From the IMG/VR virus record IMGVR_UViG_2778261360_000018: DNA of 9,346 nt, one strand, 5' to 3'. Below are positions 1,450-8,125 of this stretch, in pieces. This DNA comes from a virus. Its lineage: Duplodnaviria > Heunggongvirae > Uroviricota > Caudoviricetes. How positions within the stretch are numbered: position 1 is the stretch's first letter; every line of letters begins with the position of its first letter. The translations under genes were made by a program, and so were the position numbers. The notes under the pieces were generated by a model, which had not been told where the DNA came from, did no database searches, and was given only the letters and a program-made list of their open reading frames with translations.

Positions 1450-2096
1450 GCTGCACGCTCCCGCCCCTGGTTGTCTGTTGGTGACAGCGGAGCATTGCTG
1501 AATGCATTTGTTAATCCGCCAATATCCAACGCGTATCCAGGGTGTAGTTGCACTGCCGGGTCTTCGCACTGATTACCCCAAACATCGAAGCCATGAGACG
1601 ACTGGCGGGCGAACAGTTCAATGCGAGAAACATCGCCTAACAATTGCACAAGTTTTTCACGAACGATATCTGGCTTTCTTGAATGCTCAAGCCGCGGTGC
1701 GGTAAATGACTGAACGATCCCTGCATTAATGCGCGTAGGTAGTTTTCCCTTTACCGCAAACAGGCAATCTTCACTATTGGCGCGAGTCATGTGTCCCATA
1801 CCCATAACCAGTTTATCTGGTTGTCGACTACCACATTTTATCCACGTGAATCCCTTCATGGTCATCAGACGGAATCCCCAGGCTTCAACAACTTTTAGTG
1901 CTTCTAGTGGTTGTGTTGGCACCCACCACATGGCCAACAGACAGTTTTCATCGGCCAAATCCCACACAGGAAGGCGGCAGATATCCAGCACACTCATAAC
2001 CGGATATTTAAAACCGGCACCGCGATTACCATCTGCGGCTTTGTCCCGGTATACCCAGGGGGGATCTGCATAGATTAGTGTGTATTTCTTAGTCAT
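1446..2096 (-). CDS. MT-A70 family N6-adenine DNA methyltransferase (orphan, no cognate nuclease seen)
   Basis: N-terminal MTKKYTLIYADPPW carries the DPPW catalytic motif typical of MT-A70-type adenine methyltransferases. ATG at 2096-2094 preferred over the upstream GTG at 2108 because of the GGGGTGG Shine-Dalgarno-like stretch just upstream. 216 aa. Confidence 0.8.
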   Translation of the reverse strand: MTKKYTLIYADPPWVYRDKAADGNRGAGFKYPVMSVLDICRLPVWDLADENCLLAMWWVPTQPLEALKVVEAWGFRLMTMKGFTWIKCGSRQPDKLVMGMGHMTRANSEDCLFAVKGKLPTRINAGIVQSFTAPRLEHSRKPDIVREKLVQLLGDVSRIELFARQSSHGFDVWGNQCEDPAVQLHPGYALDIGGLTNAFSNAPLSPTDNQGRERAA

Positions 2097-2340
2097 AAAC
2101 CACCCCACAACATCCTATGCCGCTATAGTCGCCACGGCGAAGGCCGTTACCTTTTGTGATACATTGGTCCCTGCGAACCGCGATCCTTGCACGCTCAACA
2201 TCACCAGAAGCAACATCCATACACTGAAGCCAAAGGTGAGCGGCAATGCGGAACTGCCCTTTTTTCTCTCTTTCAATCGCGCGTTTTTCGATCTCTATCG
2301 CCGCAGGAGTAACGGCGACAATCTTTGACGGACTGCGCAT
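2089..2340 (-). CDS. Hypothetical protein (about 83 aa; start uncertain)
   Basis: Minus-strand ORF 2089-2388, co-directional with the operon; stop overlaps the methyltransferase start by 8 nt. ATG at 2340 has an AAGG Shine-Dalgarno-like sequence 5 nt upstream; alternatives are ATG at 2355 and GTG at 2388. No family recognised. Confidence 0.4.
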   Translation of the reverse strand: MRSPSKIVAVTPAAIEIEKRAIEREKKGQFRIAAHLWLQCMDVASGDVERARIAVRRDQCITKGNGLRRGDYSGIGCCGVVYD

Positions 2341-2497
2341 TGAAACCTTGTTCATGTGATATTTTTCAAGTCGGCTTAACTTTCTCACTTAATCCAACCC
2401 TCTCTGAAAATTAATGCCAGCAGATAAAGCCATGCTGAAACAGAGGCCAGGAATAAGTACCATCCTGACCATTTGCTCCAGTGCCTTAGCAGCACAC

Positions 2498-2746
2498 TCA
2501 TGCAGCGTTGCTCACAGGACGATATACACGTTGCTGAACCGGAGGCTTTTTACCCTGGAACTCTGCCGGGCTTGCTGCCTGACGTTCATCAAGCCAACGC
2601 TCAACTTCGTCACGGTTCCATGCGCAGCGTTTGTCAGTGATATACCAGCGTTTAGGAAATTCACCTGCGCGCTCCATACGGTCGATAGTGCTCCATGACA
2701 GTGGCACCACCGCCAGGAGTTCCTTCTTACCTAATGCACCTTTCAT
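2498..2746 (-). CDS. AlpA-like HTH regulator / putative excisionase
   Basis: 82 aa; LAVVPLSWSTIDRMERAGEFPKRWYITDKRCAWNRDEVERWLDER resembles the AlpA/Xis family of small prophage HTH proteins. Shine-Dalgarno AGAGAGG 5 nt upstream of ATG 2746. Confidence 0.7.
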   Translation of the reverse strand: MKGALGKKELLAVVPLSWSTIDRMERAGEFPKRWYITDKRCAWNRDEVERWLDERQAASPAEFQGKKPPVQQRVYRPVSNAA

Positions 2747-2768
2747 AAATACCTCTCTTGGTTGCAGT

Positions 2769-2787
2769 GCGGCGCGCGTGGCGCCGC
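2769..2787. other. GC-rich perfect hairpin between the bet-like stop and the alpA-like start
   Basis: GCGGCGC-gcgtg-GCGCCGC: 7-bp all-GC stem with 5-nt loop. Not followed by a U-tract on the transcribed (minus) strand, so not a classic intrinsic terminator. Confidence 0.4.
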
Positions 2788-2795
2788 GGTGGTGG

Positions 2796-3677
2796 TTACA
2801 TAGATGTTTCGTTTAATTCTTCCCGGCGAACGCTGTAAACGTCGGTGGCTTTTGCCAGCAGTTCGTCATCATCTGAAAGTTTTTGTGCAATGTATTTGTA
2901 AGCCTTATCTAGTTCGGAGACAGTGCTGTAATTCATCGCTGCGCTGGTAAAGGCCATCAGCATTTCTTCTGGATCACGGCTATCCGCTTTACGCGTTTGC
3001 TCATCAGGCTTTTTCACTGTTTTAGCGTTGATCAGACTGTTCATTCCCGCAGCAGTGGTCGTTTGCGGAGTAATGTCTCGCTCAACGCGCGGTGCCGTTT
3101 CCTGTAATTCGTCTGGTGTGTAAACACCGAGAAGTACATCAGGAGCGTGCAGGCGAGCCCATCGTTTCGTGCAAAGATAGGCAAGCTGCTGGCGCGGATC
3201 CTGTTCCCACAATGGAGAGTTACGCACTCCGGCTTGCGCCATACTGATGGTAAGCTCACGTGGTTCTGCTTCTCCTTTAAGAACTGCTGACACAGTTACC
3301 GTCAGATTAGGTGATTTATCTGTTTTGCCGTTAACATTCGACCAGTCACCGCTCCAGCGATAATTCAGGCGTGTCGCCAGCAGGCTGGAAGAGGATACGA
3401 CCGCGTTTACCAACTGTGCTTCGTAGCCTAACGTTCCGTTTACCACATGCGTTTTCTGCGCCACGGCGAACGGGTTCATTCCCCACTGTGCCGCCTGCAT
3501 GGTCACCGCCAGGCAATCGGCAGGTTTGCCTTCAAGATGTTTCGGTACAGTTGCTTTGCTTTGTGACATCAACTCCGCGAAACGCACCAGTTGATTCATG
3601 CCCTCGGGGCTGAAGATTGCCGCAGCAGTGCCTACAGTTGCGCCTGGTTGTGATGTGATTGCGATATCATTGCTCAT
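2796..3677 (-). CDS. Single-strand annealing recombinase, RecT/Red-beta (Bet) family
   Basis: 293 aa. By recall of lambda Bet, shares short motifs: ERDITPQ (lambda ERDITPV), GMNPF (lambda GLNPW), WEQDPRQQL (lambda WQSHPKRML). Start overlaps the upstream exonuclease stop (ATGA at 3674-3677). Confidence 0.7.
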   Translation of the reverse strand: MSNDIAITSQPGATVGTAAAIFSPEGMNQLVRFAELMSQSKATVPKHLEGKPADCLAVTMQAAQWGMNPFAVAQKTHVVNGTLGYEAQLVNAVVSSSSLLATRLNYRWSGDWSNVNGKTDKSPNLTVTVSAVLKGEAEPRELTISMAQAGVRNSPLWEQDPRQQLAYLCTKRWARLHAPDVLLGVYTPDELQETAPRVERDITPQTTTAAGMNSLINAKTVKKPDEQTRKADSRDPEEMLMAFTSAAMNYSTVSELDKAYKYIAQKLSDDDELLAKATDVYSVRREELNETSM

Positions 3678-4495
3678 ACATACATATCCTGTTTACGTGC
3701 CCAGTCAGGGCGTTTAATAATTTCCACTCCGCCCCATTCATCGTTGATGCGGCATTCGTGATAGGTATTCAGATCCCGGCGGAACAGAGCGTGCCCGGCA
3801 TCGACATCCGGCGCATCCAGCTCGAACACGCGTACCGGATACCGACCACAATCAATGCTTTCGCTCACGGCAAGAAAGAAAAAACCATGCGGCTGACCAG
3901 TAACCCTCATTGCGCCTTCGCGGTACATTGCGTCCTGCACGTGGTAGCGGAATTCCTCGATGTGACGTGCAAAACGGTCCATATCTGCAACCTTTTTCAC
4001 GTCGACGATCACGTTGTGCTCGTTCAGCCATTTGTCTGGACGAATTCGGCACAACTCACCAGTCTCTTCATCGTTCCAGTACATTGACGCTTCGCAGTAA
4101 CCAGGTGCTTCCAACATCCAGCGTGCAGCCGGGTGAGCCATTGCGCTATCACGCATCAGCTCCAGTTTTCGCCACTGCTCGACATCAAGTACCGTAATAC
4201 CCATATCCGCCACATCACGAAGAAATGCTTCTTCGTCAGCTTTACCTTGTTTTGTCCGACGATCGAATTTCGGTGAAACGATGAAGCGCTTGTCGAATTC
4301 TCCAGGTTCCAGAAGCAGACAGTGCAATGCGGTTCCCATATCCAGTGCAGACTTTTTCTCTTCGTCTTCTGGTGCTGCCTGAACCCATTTAAGAAGCGCC
4401 GGATTCTTGGCAACCATGTCCAGTTGCGACTTACTCACGCCGTCACCGGCGTGGTAGTCTTCGTTGCTGATGTCGAAATAAATTCCCGGTTTCAT
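3674..4495 (-). CDS. PD-(D/E)XK-family exonuclease (RecE/exodeoxyribonuclease VIII-like, DUF3799-type), partner of the annealing protein
   Basis: 273 aa. N-terminal GIYFDISNEDYH, then D/E-rich blocks and IVDVKK resembling PD-(D/E)XK nuclease motifs. Coupled to both neighbours by ATGA overlaps (4492-4495 and 3674-3677). Shine-Dalgarno AGAGGGA upstream. Confidence 0.7.
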   Translation of the reverse strand: MKPGIYFDISNEDYHAGDGVSKSQLDMVAKNPALLKWVQAAPEDEEKKSALDMGTALHCLLLEPGEFDKRFIVSPKFDRRTKQGKADEEAFLRDVADMGITVLDVEQWRKLELMRDSAMAHPAARWMLEAPGYCEASMYWNDEETGELCRIRPDKWLNEHNVIVDVKKVADMDRFARHIEEFRYHVQDAMYREGAMRVTGQPHGFFFLAVSESIDCGRYPVRVFELDAPDVDAGHALFRRDLNTYHECRINDEWGGVEIIKRPDWARKQDMYV

Positions 4496-4791
4496 GCCGC
4501 GTCCCTCTGCCCATCAAGCTGATCAGCCAGATCCCAGCGGGCGATAATTGCCATTGCCTCTCGCCGGTAGGCATCCATCAGTTCTTCGAACTCAGGGCTG
4601 TCTTTAGCAGCCTCCAGTACTTCCTGACGAACGCCTTTGCCTGTTACAACGTCGAAAGTTGAGGCCAGTTGATGAAGCCGGATACTCTCAATCAGTTCAA
4701 CTTGTCGGTCATATAGCTGTTCTGACAGGCGGTAGTCCTTGTCGAATGCCAGCATGATTTTTTGAAGATTTTTCTGCTGATTAACGTTCAT
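4492..4791 (-). CDS. Hypothetical acidic protein (99 aa), early-left operon
   Basis: ATG at 4791 preceded by GGGAGGG; the track's longer 4806 start lacks this. MNVNQQKNLQKIM...PEFEELMDAYRREAM. No Arg-rich N-like motif. Faint resemblance to the lambda Gam C-terminus is speculative. Confidence 0.6.
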   Translation of the reverse strand: MNVNQQKNLQKIMLAFDKDYRLSEQLYDRQVELIESIRLHQLASTFDVVTGKGVRQEVLEAAKDSPEFEELMDAYRREAMAIIARWDLADQLDGQRDAA

Positions 4792-4952: not shown

Positions 4953-5043
4953 TTACCTCGGTTTGTTACCGTTGAGGTAATAATTATGCGTATTTGGTTT
5001 GATGTCAATAGATATGAGTTAAAAAAATTACCCGTTAGGTAAT
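4953..5043 (-). promoter_or_regulatory. pL/OL-like leftward early promoter with two operator palindromes
   Basis: Minus-strand perfect -35 TTGACA (plus 5003-5008) with an AT-rich -10 candidate near 4980-4988. Palindromes gTTACC-gttga-GGTAAT (4965-4981, over -10/+1) and ATTACC-cgtta-GGTAAT (5027-5043, upstream of -35). Longer 7-bp arms TTACCTC/GAGGTAA at 4953-4959 and 4974-4980. Confidence 0.5.
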
Positions 5044-5050
5044 CGAATAG

Positions 5051-5079
5051 GCAATAAAAAAGCCGCCAGAAGGCGGCTT
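5051..5079 (-). terminator. Intrinsic terminator downstream of the repressor gene
   Basis: Stem AAGCCGCC / GGCGGCTT (5060-5067 / 5072-5079) with loop agaa; on the minus strand it is followed by TTTTATTGC (plus 5051-5059). Lies between the repressor stop (5100) and the pL-like promoter. Confidence 0.6.
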
Positions 5080-5099: not shown

Positions 5100-5684
5100 T
5101 TATTGTTTGTTTTTTTCGTTCTGGTTGATGACAAATTCAATGTAACTTTCGATCTTTGCCTTCTCTGTTTCAGGTAACAATGCGTAGCGCGAGCGATCAT
5201 AGTTGATGGTCGCAGGGTCGTGCGGGTGAATCAGTAATTCATAGCCGTGACGCCCGAATGCGGATGCAACATTCTCCAGGGTGGAAATGGAAACGCTGAC
5301 CTCATTGTTTAACAGGCGGCTGATTGTCACCTGGGCGACGCCGGATGCGCGGTGTAGTTTTCCCTGCGTTGAAAGGTCGCGGCTTTCGCTCATCCAGCGT
5401 TCCAGGTTGTGAGCCGCCAGCTGTCCAATGTCGCTTGGGCCGACAGGCTGAAAACCTTCCTGAGAAAGCGAGCGATCGATATCAAGCCAGTTACGGGGTT
5501 TATTGGCGGCAGCTTCAATTTTTCGCGCAACCTGGTCGCCGATAACCTTCTTGCCAAGAGCCCAGCGGTTTACCAGATTTGCCTGAGTTCCAAGTTTTTC
5601 TGCCATCCGCGTCTGAACACCATTGAATTCACGGTCGATCAAGTCGTTGAGATTTTGCCTGCGGACGTCCTGAATACTTTTCAT
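5100..5684 (-). CDS. Prophage immunity repressor, CI-like by position; two XRE-type HTH domains, no S24 peptidase domain
   Basis: 194 aa. HTH 1 about residues 20-65 (VQTRMAEKLGTQANLVNRWALGKKVIGDQVARKIEAA); HTH 2 about residues 105-150 (LSTQGKLHRASGVAQVTISRLLNNEVSVSISTLENVASAFG). No LexA/CI-type autocleavage module. Divergent from the cro-like gene across an operator-rich region; poor Shine-Dalgarno, as for lambda cI from PRM. Confidence 0.75.
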   Translation of the reverse strand: MKSIQDVRRQNLNDLIDREFNGVQTRMAEKLGTQANLVNRWALGKKVIGDQVARKIEAAANKPRNWLDIDRSLSQEGFQPVGPSDIGQLAAHNLERWMSESRDLSTQGKLHRASGVAQVTISRLLNNEVSVSISTLENVASAFGRHGYELLIHPHDPATINYDRSRYALLPETEKAKIESYIEFVINQNEKNKQ

Positions 5685-5738: not shown

Positions 5739-5813
5739 ATTACCCAACGGGTAAATGCACCCCATAGGTAACTATCCTTGATTTTTGTTACCTTATGGGT
5801 GAATATTTATTAT
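5739..5813. promoter_or_regulatory. OR-like divergent promoter/operator region between the repressor and cro-like gene
   Basis: Three related palindromes: ATTACC-caacg-GGTAAA (5739-5755), gcACC-ccata-GGTAAc (5757-5772), TTACC-ttatg-GGTgA (5788-5802). Candidate rightward promoter -35 TTGTTA (5785-5790), 17-nt spacer, -10 TATTAT (5808-5813). Confidence 0.5.
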
Positions 5814-5838: not shown

Positions 5839-6069
5839 ATGAGCGATAACGGACATTTCGATTTCAAAAAGCACTGGCTTGCACTTACTCCGGATGAGCG
5901 TGAAGCCTTCGCACAGGAAGCCGGAACGACGAGTCACTATATCCAGACTCACTTAACAGGTAAGCGCAAAATGCCAGGTAAGGTATTGATGAATGGGCTT
6001 TTTAAAGCCTGTAAAACAAGACAATGGCTGCGCTCAAAAGCAGAACTGGCATACTTCTTCTACTCATGA
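5839..6069 (+). CDS. Cro/CII-like small HTH regulator, first gene of the rightward operon
   Basis: 76 aa. LTPDEREAFAQEAGTTSHYIQTHLTGKR is HTH-like. Sits where cro sits in lambda. Weak Shine-Dalgarno CAGG 8 nt upstream. Confidence 0.55.
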   Translation: MSDNGHFDFKKHWLALTPDEREAFAQEAGTTSHYIQTHLTGKRKMPGKVLMNGLFKACKTRQWLRSKAELAYFFYS

Positions 6070-6090: not shown

Positions 6091-6114
6091 AGACCGCCAT
6101 CCGGCGGTCTTTTC
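6091..6114 (+). terminator. tR1-like intrinsic terminator candidate after the cro-like gene
   Basis: Stem AGACCGCC / GGCGGTCT (6091-6098 / 6103-6110), loop atcc, followed by TTTC. The U-tract is short, so termination may be partial. Confidence 0.45.
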
Positions 6115-6219
6115 ATATCTATTCGCACCTTAAAGGTAATAAAAAACCAAATATGGTTGATCTTTTTTTTGTGTCAGCACAAAATAACCGTAATCCCAAT
6201 ACTAATAACAGGGCTTACC

Positions 6220-6435: not shown

Positions 6436-7227
6436 ATGAGCAGACATGCAACAGATTGGGCCTGGGAGACAGATCCAGGTAGCTCGTCATTAAAGCTCAT
6501 ACTGCTCTCGATGGCTGACAGAGCCGATGAATATAACCTTTGCTACCCCAGCATAGAACGCCTCGTTAAAGACACTTGCCTGAATAAAAAAACCGTGCAG
6601 GCCGGGCTTATATCGCTCATGAAAATGGGGCTTATTTCAGATACCGGAGAGAGAAAGGGAGCGACGAAAAGAGTGCGGGTTTTCTCTCTTAATATAACCA
6701 AAAACGGGAACATTAAAGGCAACCGGGAAGGGGGTAATGAACCCGAAAACGGTAATGTTACCGAAAACGGGAATATACCCAAAAACGGGGTGTTGAATGA
6801 TCCCAAAAACGGGATCCAGAACCAGTCATATAACCAGTCATTTAACCAAGAGAGGGAGAGCAGGACAAAAAGCGGGGATTCTGTGCCTCATGACCCCGGC
6901 GCAAACAACGCCGTGATGAATAACTTTGTTTCTCCTGGTGGGCCAGGGCAATTAGGCAAATTTGTCATGCATGAACAATGGCAGCCATCAGATGACTTTC
7001 TTCGGAAAAGCTCATTGCAGGGGATCTACCTGGACAGTCTGCCAACGGCACAGGAACTTGCAGAGTTCAGAATTTACTGGATGGCTGAGGGTAAGGCATA
7101 CCATCAGGCACAGTGGGAGCAGAAGCTGGCAAGGCGGCTGCAGATTAGCAGACAGAAGCAATCAACATTACCTGATAACAACGTTCCGCACTGGAACAGC
7201 CCTGAAGCGTGGGAGGATTTCTTGTGA
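6436..7227 (+). CDS. Replication initiator, lambda O-like (N-terminal winged-helix, low-complexity linker, C-terminal DnaT-like region)
   Basis: 263 aa. N-terminal LKLILLSMADRADEYNLCYPSIERLVKDTCLNKKTVQAGLISLMKMGLI is HTH-like; central N/G-rich linker is encoded by DNA iterons; C-terminal QWQPSDDFL...EFRIYWMAEGKAYHQAQWEQKLARRLQ. Located directly upstream of the P homolog. Confidence 0.75.
   Translation: MSRHATDWAWETDPGSSSLKLILLSMADRADEYNLCYPSIERLVKDTCLNKKTVQAGLISLMKMGLISDTGERKGATKRVRVFSLNITKNGNIKGNREGGNEPENGNVTENGNIPKNGVLNDPKNGIQNQSYNQSFNQERESRTKSGDSVPHDPGANNAVMNNFVSPGGPGQLGKFVMHEQWQPSDDFLRKSSLQGIYLDSLPTAQELAEFRIYWMAEGKAYHQAQWEQKLARRLQISRQKQSTLPDNNVPHWNSPEAWEDFL
6694..6847. repeat. Iteron array (putative replication origin) inside the O-like gene
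   Basis: Five direct repeats with core AAAACGG(G) starting at 6701, 6746, 6764, 6782 and 6806, with 18-bp periodicity for the central three; then a tandem CCAGTCAT(A/T)TAACC x2 at 6822-6847. Confidence 0.6.
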
Positions 7228-8045: not shown

Positions 8046-8125
8046 ATTACCTGTTGGGTAATAAAATATTCTAAATTCTATTGATTTCGTGTCTTATGTG
8101 GTTTTTAATTACCTTAGGGGGTAAA
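8046..8125 (+). promoter_or_regulatory. Second rightward operator-flanked promoter downstream of P
   Basis: Perfect palindrome ATTACC-tgttg-GGTAAT (8046-8062) upstream of -35 TTGATT (8081-8086); 17-nt spacer; -10 TTTAAT (8104-8109) overlapped by ATTACC-ttaggg-GGTAAA (8108-8125). Same motif family as the OL and OR sites. Confidence 0.45.

Follow-up and report, generated by a model that had tools for sequence, protein, structure and literature searches.

The leftward gene rep, in the immunity region of the window (the whole 9,346-nt stretch of phage DNA analyzed here), most likely encodes a lysogeny repressor of the Rep type, belonging to a temperate podophage or prophage of E. coli that is phiV10-like (epsilon15-like, genus Uetakevirus). 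Its sequence matches phiV10 p40 (PhiV10p40), ORF21 of vB_EcoP_ZX5 and E. coli WP_000836290.1 at 100% identity, and further Uetakevirus records carry the identical repressor as well. The explanation as a whole, a Rep-type repressor relieved by the antirepressor Ant and not by self-cleavage, is held with high confidence. A two-HTH, non-cleavable repressor working with an antirepressor is already known, having appeared in publications or record annotations on identical proteins or homologues, and the significance of the finding is little beyond correct annotation. 'HTH domain-containing protein' and 'VapI antidote' are unsuitable names for the gene, which is better called a prophage repressor of the Rep type (SPC32H-like); for the 85-aa product of related prophages the name Ant should replace 'hypothetical protein', and induction in phiV10-like prophage genomes should hinge on LexA and Ant, not on repressor cleavage. 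The features of the region are listed in Table 1.

Table 1. Features of the repressor gene and its surroundings (window coordinates; a dot marks features given no strand).
Feature	Position	Strand	Remarks
Operator-like palindrome TTACCGTTGAGGTAA, putative leftward operator 1	4966..4980	.	exact match; touches the -10 of the predicted leftward promoter
Predicted leftward early promoter	4980..5008	-	TTGACA, 17 nt, AATTAT; 10/12 consensus; between the putative leftward operators
Operator-like palindrome TTACCCGTTAGGTAA, putative leftward operator 2	5028..5042	.	62 bp from the first; syntenic with SPC32H 33666
Intrinsic terminator directly 3' of rep	5060..5079	-	8-pair stem (6 G-C) plus T run
rep, lysogeny repressor (most likely)	5100..5684	-	194 aa, ATG start; stop codon 5100-5102; ORF call
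C-terminal tail, CAD/TetDloop equivalent	5103..5228	-	aa 153-194; model, SPC32H Rep homology
Second XRE-type HTH-like domain	5229..5432	-	aa 85-152; Pfam HTH_3, five helices, 5D4Z match
Flexible linker	5433..5480	-	aa 69-84; pLDDT below 50 at residues 74-83
N-terminal HTH, probable operator-reading domain	5481..5684	-	aa 1-68; model, PHROG, SPC32H Rep homology
Operator-like palindrome TTACCCAACGGGTAA, rep/cro intergenic	5740..5754	.	exact match
Degenerate operator-like site GCACCCCATAGGTAA	5757..5771	.	two mismatches; 17 bp from the 5740 site
Predicted rightward promoter, cro-like gene	5785..5813	+	TTGTTA, 17 nt, TATTAT; 9/12 consensus
Operator-like site TTACCTTATGGGTGA	5788..5802	.	one mismatch; within predicted rightward promoter 5785-5813
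Divergent Cro-like regulator	5839..6069	+	76 aa; phrog_35 'transcriptional repressor', E=5.6e-13
Terminator after cro-like gene	6091-6110		
Operator-like palindrome TTACCTGTTGGGTAA	8047..8061	.	exact; between P-like replication gene and DUF1064 gene

Identity and distribution of the repressor

The DNA around rep is 98.1-98.7% identical to phiV10 and ZX5 (98.7% to phiV10 over the immunity region), and the order of genes in the region is syntenic with that of phiV10, SPC32H and epsilon15. The repressor is described as 'two helix-turn-helix motifs; similar to putative repressor epsilon15p38' in the phiV10 record, and as 'HHpred: 5d50_A Repressor' in the epsilon15 record. When compared to PDB sequences by phmmer, the protein matched 5D50_A, 'Repressor', over residues 1-190 (E=4e-42) and 5D4Z, a fragment spanning residues 92-198 (E=4.4e-20). 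According to the entry titles 5D4Z is Rep, and 5D50 the Rep-Ant complex, of a Salmonella temperate phage; the phage is SPC32H. The SPC32H Rep is 42% identical to the window repressor over the full length (BLASTP, E=2e-53), identity reaching 54% in the N-terminal module, 31% in the linker, 32% in the middle domain and 43% in the tail. Full-length homology, the same three modules and an immunity context with flanking palindromes place the protein among the Rep repressors of the SPC32H/epsilon15 type. The primary reports on SPC32H Rep and Ant are those of Kim & Ryu 2013 (J Virol) and Kim et al. 2016 (PNAS).

The repressor family is frequent in Enterobacteriaceae (86 clusters). Of 5,426 complete E. 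coli genomes, 1,430 match at least part of the 9.3-kb window and 366 contain at least 80% of it; these counts overstate the carriage of the repressor, because the window consists in part of widespread lambdoid modules.

One record names the repressor 'plasmid maintenance system antidote protein VapI', and weak matches to HigA and HipB, far under the cutoff, were found in NCBIfam. The chance that the gene is a toxin-antitoxin antidote of the HigA/VapI type, and not an immunity repressor, is nonetheless practically negligible. No toxin gene is adjacent, because a terminator follows rep, and rep is flanked by early promoters and faces a cro-like gene. In ZX5 lytic genes are repressed by the identical protein: overexpression of ORF21 left no free phage and lowered holin and endolysin transcripts by 99.97-99.99% (PMC9782041).

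Modular organization of the protein

The initial annotation had assigned two HTH domains to the 194-aa protein. Both were recovered by Pfam, PHROG and AlphaFold analyses; a third module, corresponding to residues 153-194, had been missed. Searched with the whole repressor, HTH_3 is matched in two stretches (Pfam, E=1.2e-9), the best of which covers residues 106-147. When residues 81-154 are scored alone, HTH_3 reaches 27 bits and passes the cutoff of 23. Residues 1-80 alone stay under cutoff in Pfam, with 16 bits for HTH_3 (E=0.013) and 20.5 bits for YdaS_toxin; in the scan of the whole protein residues 20-61 match YdaS_toxin and DUF739, both of which we take to be HTH-type families. The N-terminal HTH was accepted despite the weak Pfam scores because residues 1-76 are covered by PHROG repressor families (E=2.8e-11 and 4.1e-10), because this module shows the 54% identity to SPC32H Rep given above, and because it is modelled as a helical bundle. 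Residues 10-186 are covered by phrog_8. No Pfam family matched residues 153-194 in the Pfam scan, nor residues 155-194 scored alone. A common origin of the two HTH domains by internal duplication was considered and rejected, the two halves showing no similarity to each other by BLASTP.

The AlphaFold model built from 43 homologue sequences (alignment A2) has a pLDDT of 81.5, against 45 with single-sequence input; one homologue, P0064, looked frameshifted and was excluded from the alignment. In the model the first bundle is made up by helices 4-19, 24-31, 35-43 and 50-59, and the second by helices 82-100, 107-114, 118-125, 133-142 and 147-151. Residues 74-83 of the linker between them are disordered (pLDDT below 50), and the tail consists of an extended segment, a short helix (164-168) and a long one (172-193). 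Across the family the N-terminal domain is the most conserved module, the linker the least conserved segment and one of variable length. The top Foldseek matches to the model in the PDB are 5D50 and 5D4Z, with TM values of 0.71-0.76 to the 5D4Z chains over the C-terminal two-thirds. These are followed by XRE-type HTH proteins (3VK0, 3OP9, 1Y9Q, DdrO, SinR, C.BclI).

In SPC32H Rep the corresponding modules have been described as an N-terminal DNA-binding domain, a middle dimerisation domain (MDD) and a C-terminal CAD or 'TetDloop', which builds tetramers and binds the antirepressor Ant (PMC9986798). On DNA the SPC32H protein is a tetramer, the dimer binding weakly, and the DNA-binding domains which pair in the tetramer come from different dimers (PMC9638917). 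As the window Rep shares no more than 42% identity with the protein that was crystallised, its oligomeric state and its contacts with Ant are extrapolated. The initial annotation had the second HTH stand in the place of an S24 peptidase domain. The HTH is there; a simple swap does not describe the protein, the SPC32H equivalent of this domain being a dimerisation module, with the tail lying beyond it.

That both HTH domains bind DNA, recognising two kinds of site, and that the second is more than a dimerisation module, is improbable. The middle domain passes the HTH_3 cutoff, resembles LacI-type HTHs too, and carries at typical DNA-contact positions three polar residues, Q107, Q118 and R123, which are invariant in 43 close family members. 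Yet SPC32H Rep has E and P at the positions of Q107 and Q118 and uses the same TTACC/GGTAA half-sites, and it is in this phage that the equivalent domain has been described as serving dimerisation (PMC9986798). Rep proteins of the phiV10 type and SPC32H Rep share the recognition helix NLVNRW of the N-terminal domain. Since NLVNRW is kept and the middle-domain residues Q107 and Q118 are not, the comparison fits the N-terminal domain as the operator reader.

Absence of self-cleavage features

Lack of an autocleavage domain, also proposed in the initial annotation, was borne out. Peptidase_S24 had no match in the repressor even at E<=10 (Pfam); neither an AG or CG dipeptide nor a GDSM-like motif is present among the 194 residues. 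The AlphaFold model is all-helical and has no beta-rich domain, and no S24 fold occurs among the Foldseek PDB matches. Profile-HMM searches and structure prediction, the check suggested along with that annotation, thus agreed on both points, two HTH domains and zero S24 fold. The repressor does not join the lambda CI/LexA family, in which an HTH is combined with Peptidase S24.

Cleavage might still occur, by the protein itself or by a partner protease such as a metalloprotease of the ImmA/IrrE type, as happens to ImmR or DdrO, and DdrO, an XRE repressor cleaved by a protease, is found among the distant Foldseek matches (E about 0.1). We regard this as very improbable. The repressor lacks the S24 domain, the AG/CG site and the GDSM motif alike. 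No peptidase domain was found in any of the window ORFs scanned, and a terminator follows rep, which sets the locus apart from the ImmR/ImmA and DdrO/IrrE systems, where a COG2856/M78 metalloprotease gene adjoins that of the repressor; no peptidase is named in the phiV10 annotation either. The close homologue, SPC32H Rep, is controlled by a binding antirepressor, the route preferred here for the window repressor.

Putative operators, predicted promoters and terminators

The excess of palindromes was assessed for one candidate motif, TTACC-N5-GGTAA. Allowing for at most one mismatch, 5 sites were counted in the window vs. 0.12 expected, 14 in phiV10 and 18 in SPC32H vs. 0.65 expected in each. 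Judged by their sequence and placement, the palindromes are likely Rep operators. The site at 4966 is syntenic with the one at 33528 in SPC32H, and with a repressor site annotated in epsilon15; that at 8047 is syntenic with sites at 35070 in phiV10 and 35972 in SPC32H, and with the annotated epsilon15 repressor site at 35906-35922. Sites in the rightward cluster are spaced by 17 and 31 bp in the window vs. 17 and 30 bp in SPC32H, and the degenerate site at 5757 forms an 18-nt inverted repeat with residues 5787-5804. When compared to annotated gene coordinates, the palindromes of phiV10 and SPC32H occupy syntenic, mostly intergenic positions. The two phages have them in common downstream of rep, in the rep-cro gap, after the replication genes, close to the terminase gene, and upstream of ant, int and the lysis genes. 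In the epsilon15 record seven sites of this kind carry the label 'repressor / lysogeny', and the dispersed TTACC-N5-GGTAA sites were therefore dropped as a new observation. Both the leftward and the rightward promoter are predicted from consensus match only, and may be positioned as indicated in Table 1. The terminator which follows rep corresponds to an annotated terminator at the equivalent position in phiV10.

Additional degenerate sites, with two mismatches each, were noticed at 8109-8123, again between the P-like replication gene and the DUF1064 gene, and at 6125-6139, beyond the terminator of the cro-like gene; phiV10 too has a site after its cro-like gene. The imperfect rightward sites at 5755-5804, ATGCACCCCATAGGTAAC and GTTACCTTATGGGTGAAT, are inverted copies of each other set 14 nt apart, each pairing a consensus half-site, GGTAA, with a variant one, CACCC. 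The pair could represent a larger symmetric unit, suited to the binding of a tetramer.

The antirepressor gene and its LexA box in relatives

No antirepressor gene or LexA box had been spotted by eye in the window, and motif counts and domain scans lead to the same result. The window contains no exact CTGT-N8-ACAG, and its six one-mismatch matches, against 3.2 expected, are not significant. Ant, Bro-N, KilA-N and peptidase domains were not detected in the 16 largest or best-placed window ORFs (Pfam, PHROGs). In relatives ant lies outside the region corresponding to the window, between the structural (virion) genes and the tailspike gene; in phiV10 it is located about 32.7 kb downstream of the start of int, in prophage order. 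The phiV10 gene product p24 (85 aa, 'hypothetical protein') matches chain E of 5D50, 'Anti-repressor protein', with E=2.9e-46, and the LexA box TACTGTGTATTTATACAGT is found ahead of its gene. The E. coli 13E0780 prophage, which adjoins guaA, encodes an identical Rep and an Ant 87% identical to that of SPC32H, preceded by the LexA box TACTGTATATTTGTACAGT; TACTGTATAAATATACAGT is the box upstream of ant in ZX5, where the Ant homologue is annotated as hypothetical. An exact LexA box precedes ant in six of the seven phages aligned (phiV10, ZX5, 13E0780, SPC32H, epsilon15 and Tyrion), and a box with one mismatch in the seventh, Klebsiella phage BUCT711. Among the 36 phage records containing a Rep homologue of full length, 35 have Ant too, and records lacking such a homologue all lack Ant; in phage BP9 (PP488543.1) the Rep is identical and no Ant was seen, the match lying at the end of the record. 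Compared with SPC32H, Ant shows far higher conservation than Rep (87-88% vs. 42%). By similarity to its relatives, the source genome of the window probably carries ant too. The earlier suggestion that a non-cleaving repressor would need an antirepressor is thus supported by the homology to SPC32H Rep, and by the presence of Ant and of the LexA box in relatives with identical Rep.

In the case of Kim & Ryu 2013, self-cleavage of LexA leads to the production of the antirepressor, which inhibits the repressor by protein-protein contact (PMC7380047). Inactivation of SPC32H Rep by Ant made after LexA self-cleavage is described in secondary sources (PMC7380047, PMC9638917, PMC9986798).

A Bro-N gene adjoins ant in several relatives (ORF4, 1078-1773, in ZX5; 37336-38046 in E. 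coli 13E0780; p23, 19646-20230, in phiV10). The 'anti-repressor' tested in the ZX5 study appears to be this Bro-N protein, and not the 85-aa Ant homologue (PMC9782041). Induction could proceed mainly through a Bro-N/Ant-like antirepressor or some other LexA-independent route, the 85-aa Ant being secondary. In the Bro-N proteins of ZX5 and 13E0780 the C-terminal domain resembles Ant (42-43% identical residues over 74 aa; E=1e-19 and 2e-20), no LexA box was seen in the sequence upstream of the Bro-N gene, and ZX5 lysogens spontaneously release 10^7 PFU/mL (ZX5 report). Overexpression of ZX5 ORF4 made the prophage titre about 1000-fold lower (PMC9782041). Three facts make this course of induction unlikely to be the main one, and we give it a low probability. 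The Bro-N protein of phiV10, which is viable and temperate, has its Ant-like domain cut down to some 29 residues; stand-alone ant, together with its LexA box, is kept in every relative aligned; SPC32H has no annotated Bro-N gene, yet uses Ant. The 85-aa Ant under LexA control is therefore preferred as the principal trigger.

In all seven aligned phages a Rep-type palindrome, TTACC-N5-GGT(A/G)A, is conserved ahead of ant, some 37 nt upstream of the LexA box (alignment A3), for instance at 20877-20891 in phiV10, 20013-20027 in another phage of the set, about 38697-38711 in 13E0780 and about 2421-2437 in ZX5. The site upstream of the ant homologue is annotated as repressor-binding in the epsilon15 record. 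Dual control of ant by Rep and LexA, and a role for the Bro-N/Ant-like protein, are possible; both concern DNA outside the window. Were ant doubly repressed, induction would need LexA cleavage, and would then reinforce itself as Ant clears Rep from the ant promoter. The fusion of Bro-N to an Ant-like domain, found in many E. coli members, could serve as a trigger independent of SOS, or work across different prophages. Taken jointly, double repression of ant and the SOS-independent Bro-N/Ant-like trigger make a tentative proposal, its chances being somewhat short of even.

An extra insert in the 13E0780 prophage (33772-37034) codes for three proteins: a regulator of the Arc family, a 'phage antirepressor N-terminal domain' protein and the toxin YafO. 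The regulator and the antirepressor-domain protein presumably resemble the immI region of P22; if this likeness is true, a third candidate antirepressor would reside in this single prophage.

Proposed mechanism

The N-terminal HTH would read the TTACC-N5-GGTAA palindromes, which flank rep and may cover both the leftward early promoter, downstream of rep, and the rightward promoter of the cro-like gene. The second HTH-like domain would dimerise Rep, and the C-terminal tail would link two dimers into the DNA-binding tetramer. Lacking an S24 peptidase, Rep would not be triggered by RecA to cleave itself. DNA damage would instead inactivate the host LexA, expected to sit on the LexA box ahead of the 85-aa ant gene; Ant would then bind Rep and free it from its operators, and lytic growth would follow. 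The ORF and its domains, the missing S24 domain, the identity to known repressors, the presence of Ant and LexA boxes in relatives with identical Rep, and the overrepresentation of the palindromes together with their location were observed here, to which the scheme adds tetramer formation, Ant binding, LexA control and lytic-gene repression by analogy, from the literature on homologues. The presence of ant in the source genome, the operator role of the palindromes and the positions of the promoters enter it as probable.

Comparison with known systems

The closest system is that of SPC32H. The two repressors are homologous over the full length (42%), feature the same three modules and occupy the same genomic place in syntenic epsilon15-like genomes. 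TTACC-N5-GGTAA palindromes are shared, and relatives of the window carry an 87-88% identical Ant and an equally placed LexA box. SPC32H differs by having three strong leftward sites vs. two in the window, and by palindrome spacers which are less rich in G and C than those of the window. The repressor has diverged much more than Ant; nothing suggests a different mechanism. With phiV10 p40 and ZX5 ORF21, the repressors being identical, there is no difference.

Like lambda CI, P22 C2 and LexA, the window Rep is linked to the SOS response, and like the phage members of this set it would act as a lysogeny repressor whose gene lies between divergent early promoters and is flanked by operators. Unlike them it has neither S24 domain nor cleavage site, and the SOS signal would be indirect, passing through a LexA-controlled antirepressor. 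The Gifsy repressors and 186 CI/Tum are similar in that a non-cleavable repressor is inactivated by a small LexA-repressed protein, a likeness of shared logic; the Rep tetramer and the two HTH-like domains are, in contrast, specific to the epsilon15 group. LexA-repressed antirepressor systems of the 186 Tum and Gifsy type have been grouped together (PMC7380047). Rco of the Bacillus plasmid pLS20 combines an N-terminal HTH with a C-terminal strand-helix TetDloop tetramerisation module, and has a protein antagonist (PMC9986798). Rco differs in lacking the middle HTH-like dimerisation domain, and controls plasmid conjugation, not phage lysogeny.

Other features of the window

The 76-aa Cro-like regulator had no Pfam or PDB match. 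Five direct repeats of 18-19 nt (6690-6813), with a consensus of about TAATnnnnCCAAAAACGGG and mostly 18 bp apart, reside in the DnaT-like replication initiator gene (6436-7227), where the encoded stretch is rich in Asn and Gly. Their appearance is that of origin iterons placed within the initiator gene, as in lambda O.

RecT and a PD-(D/E)XK exonuclease are encoded in the window by separate ORFs (2796-3677 and 3674-4495) overlapping by 4 nt, whereas the phiV10 record has one fused RecE-RecT gene of 1761 nt (p37), which may reflect either a frameshift difference or a difference in annotation.

The window starts exactly at the GTG start codon of a P4-type tyrosine integrase gene (1-1251). In E. 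coli 13E0780 (1488-4514) the equivalent prophage directly follows guaA, the gene whose 3' end is the reported attachment site of ZX5 (ZX5 report).
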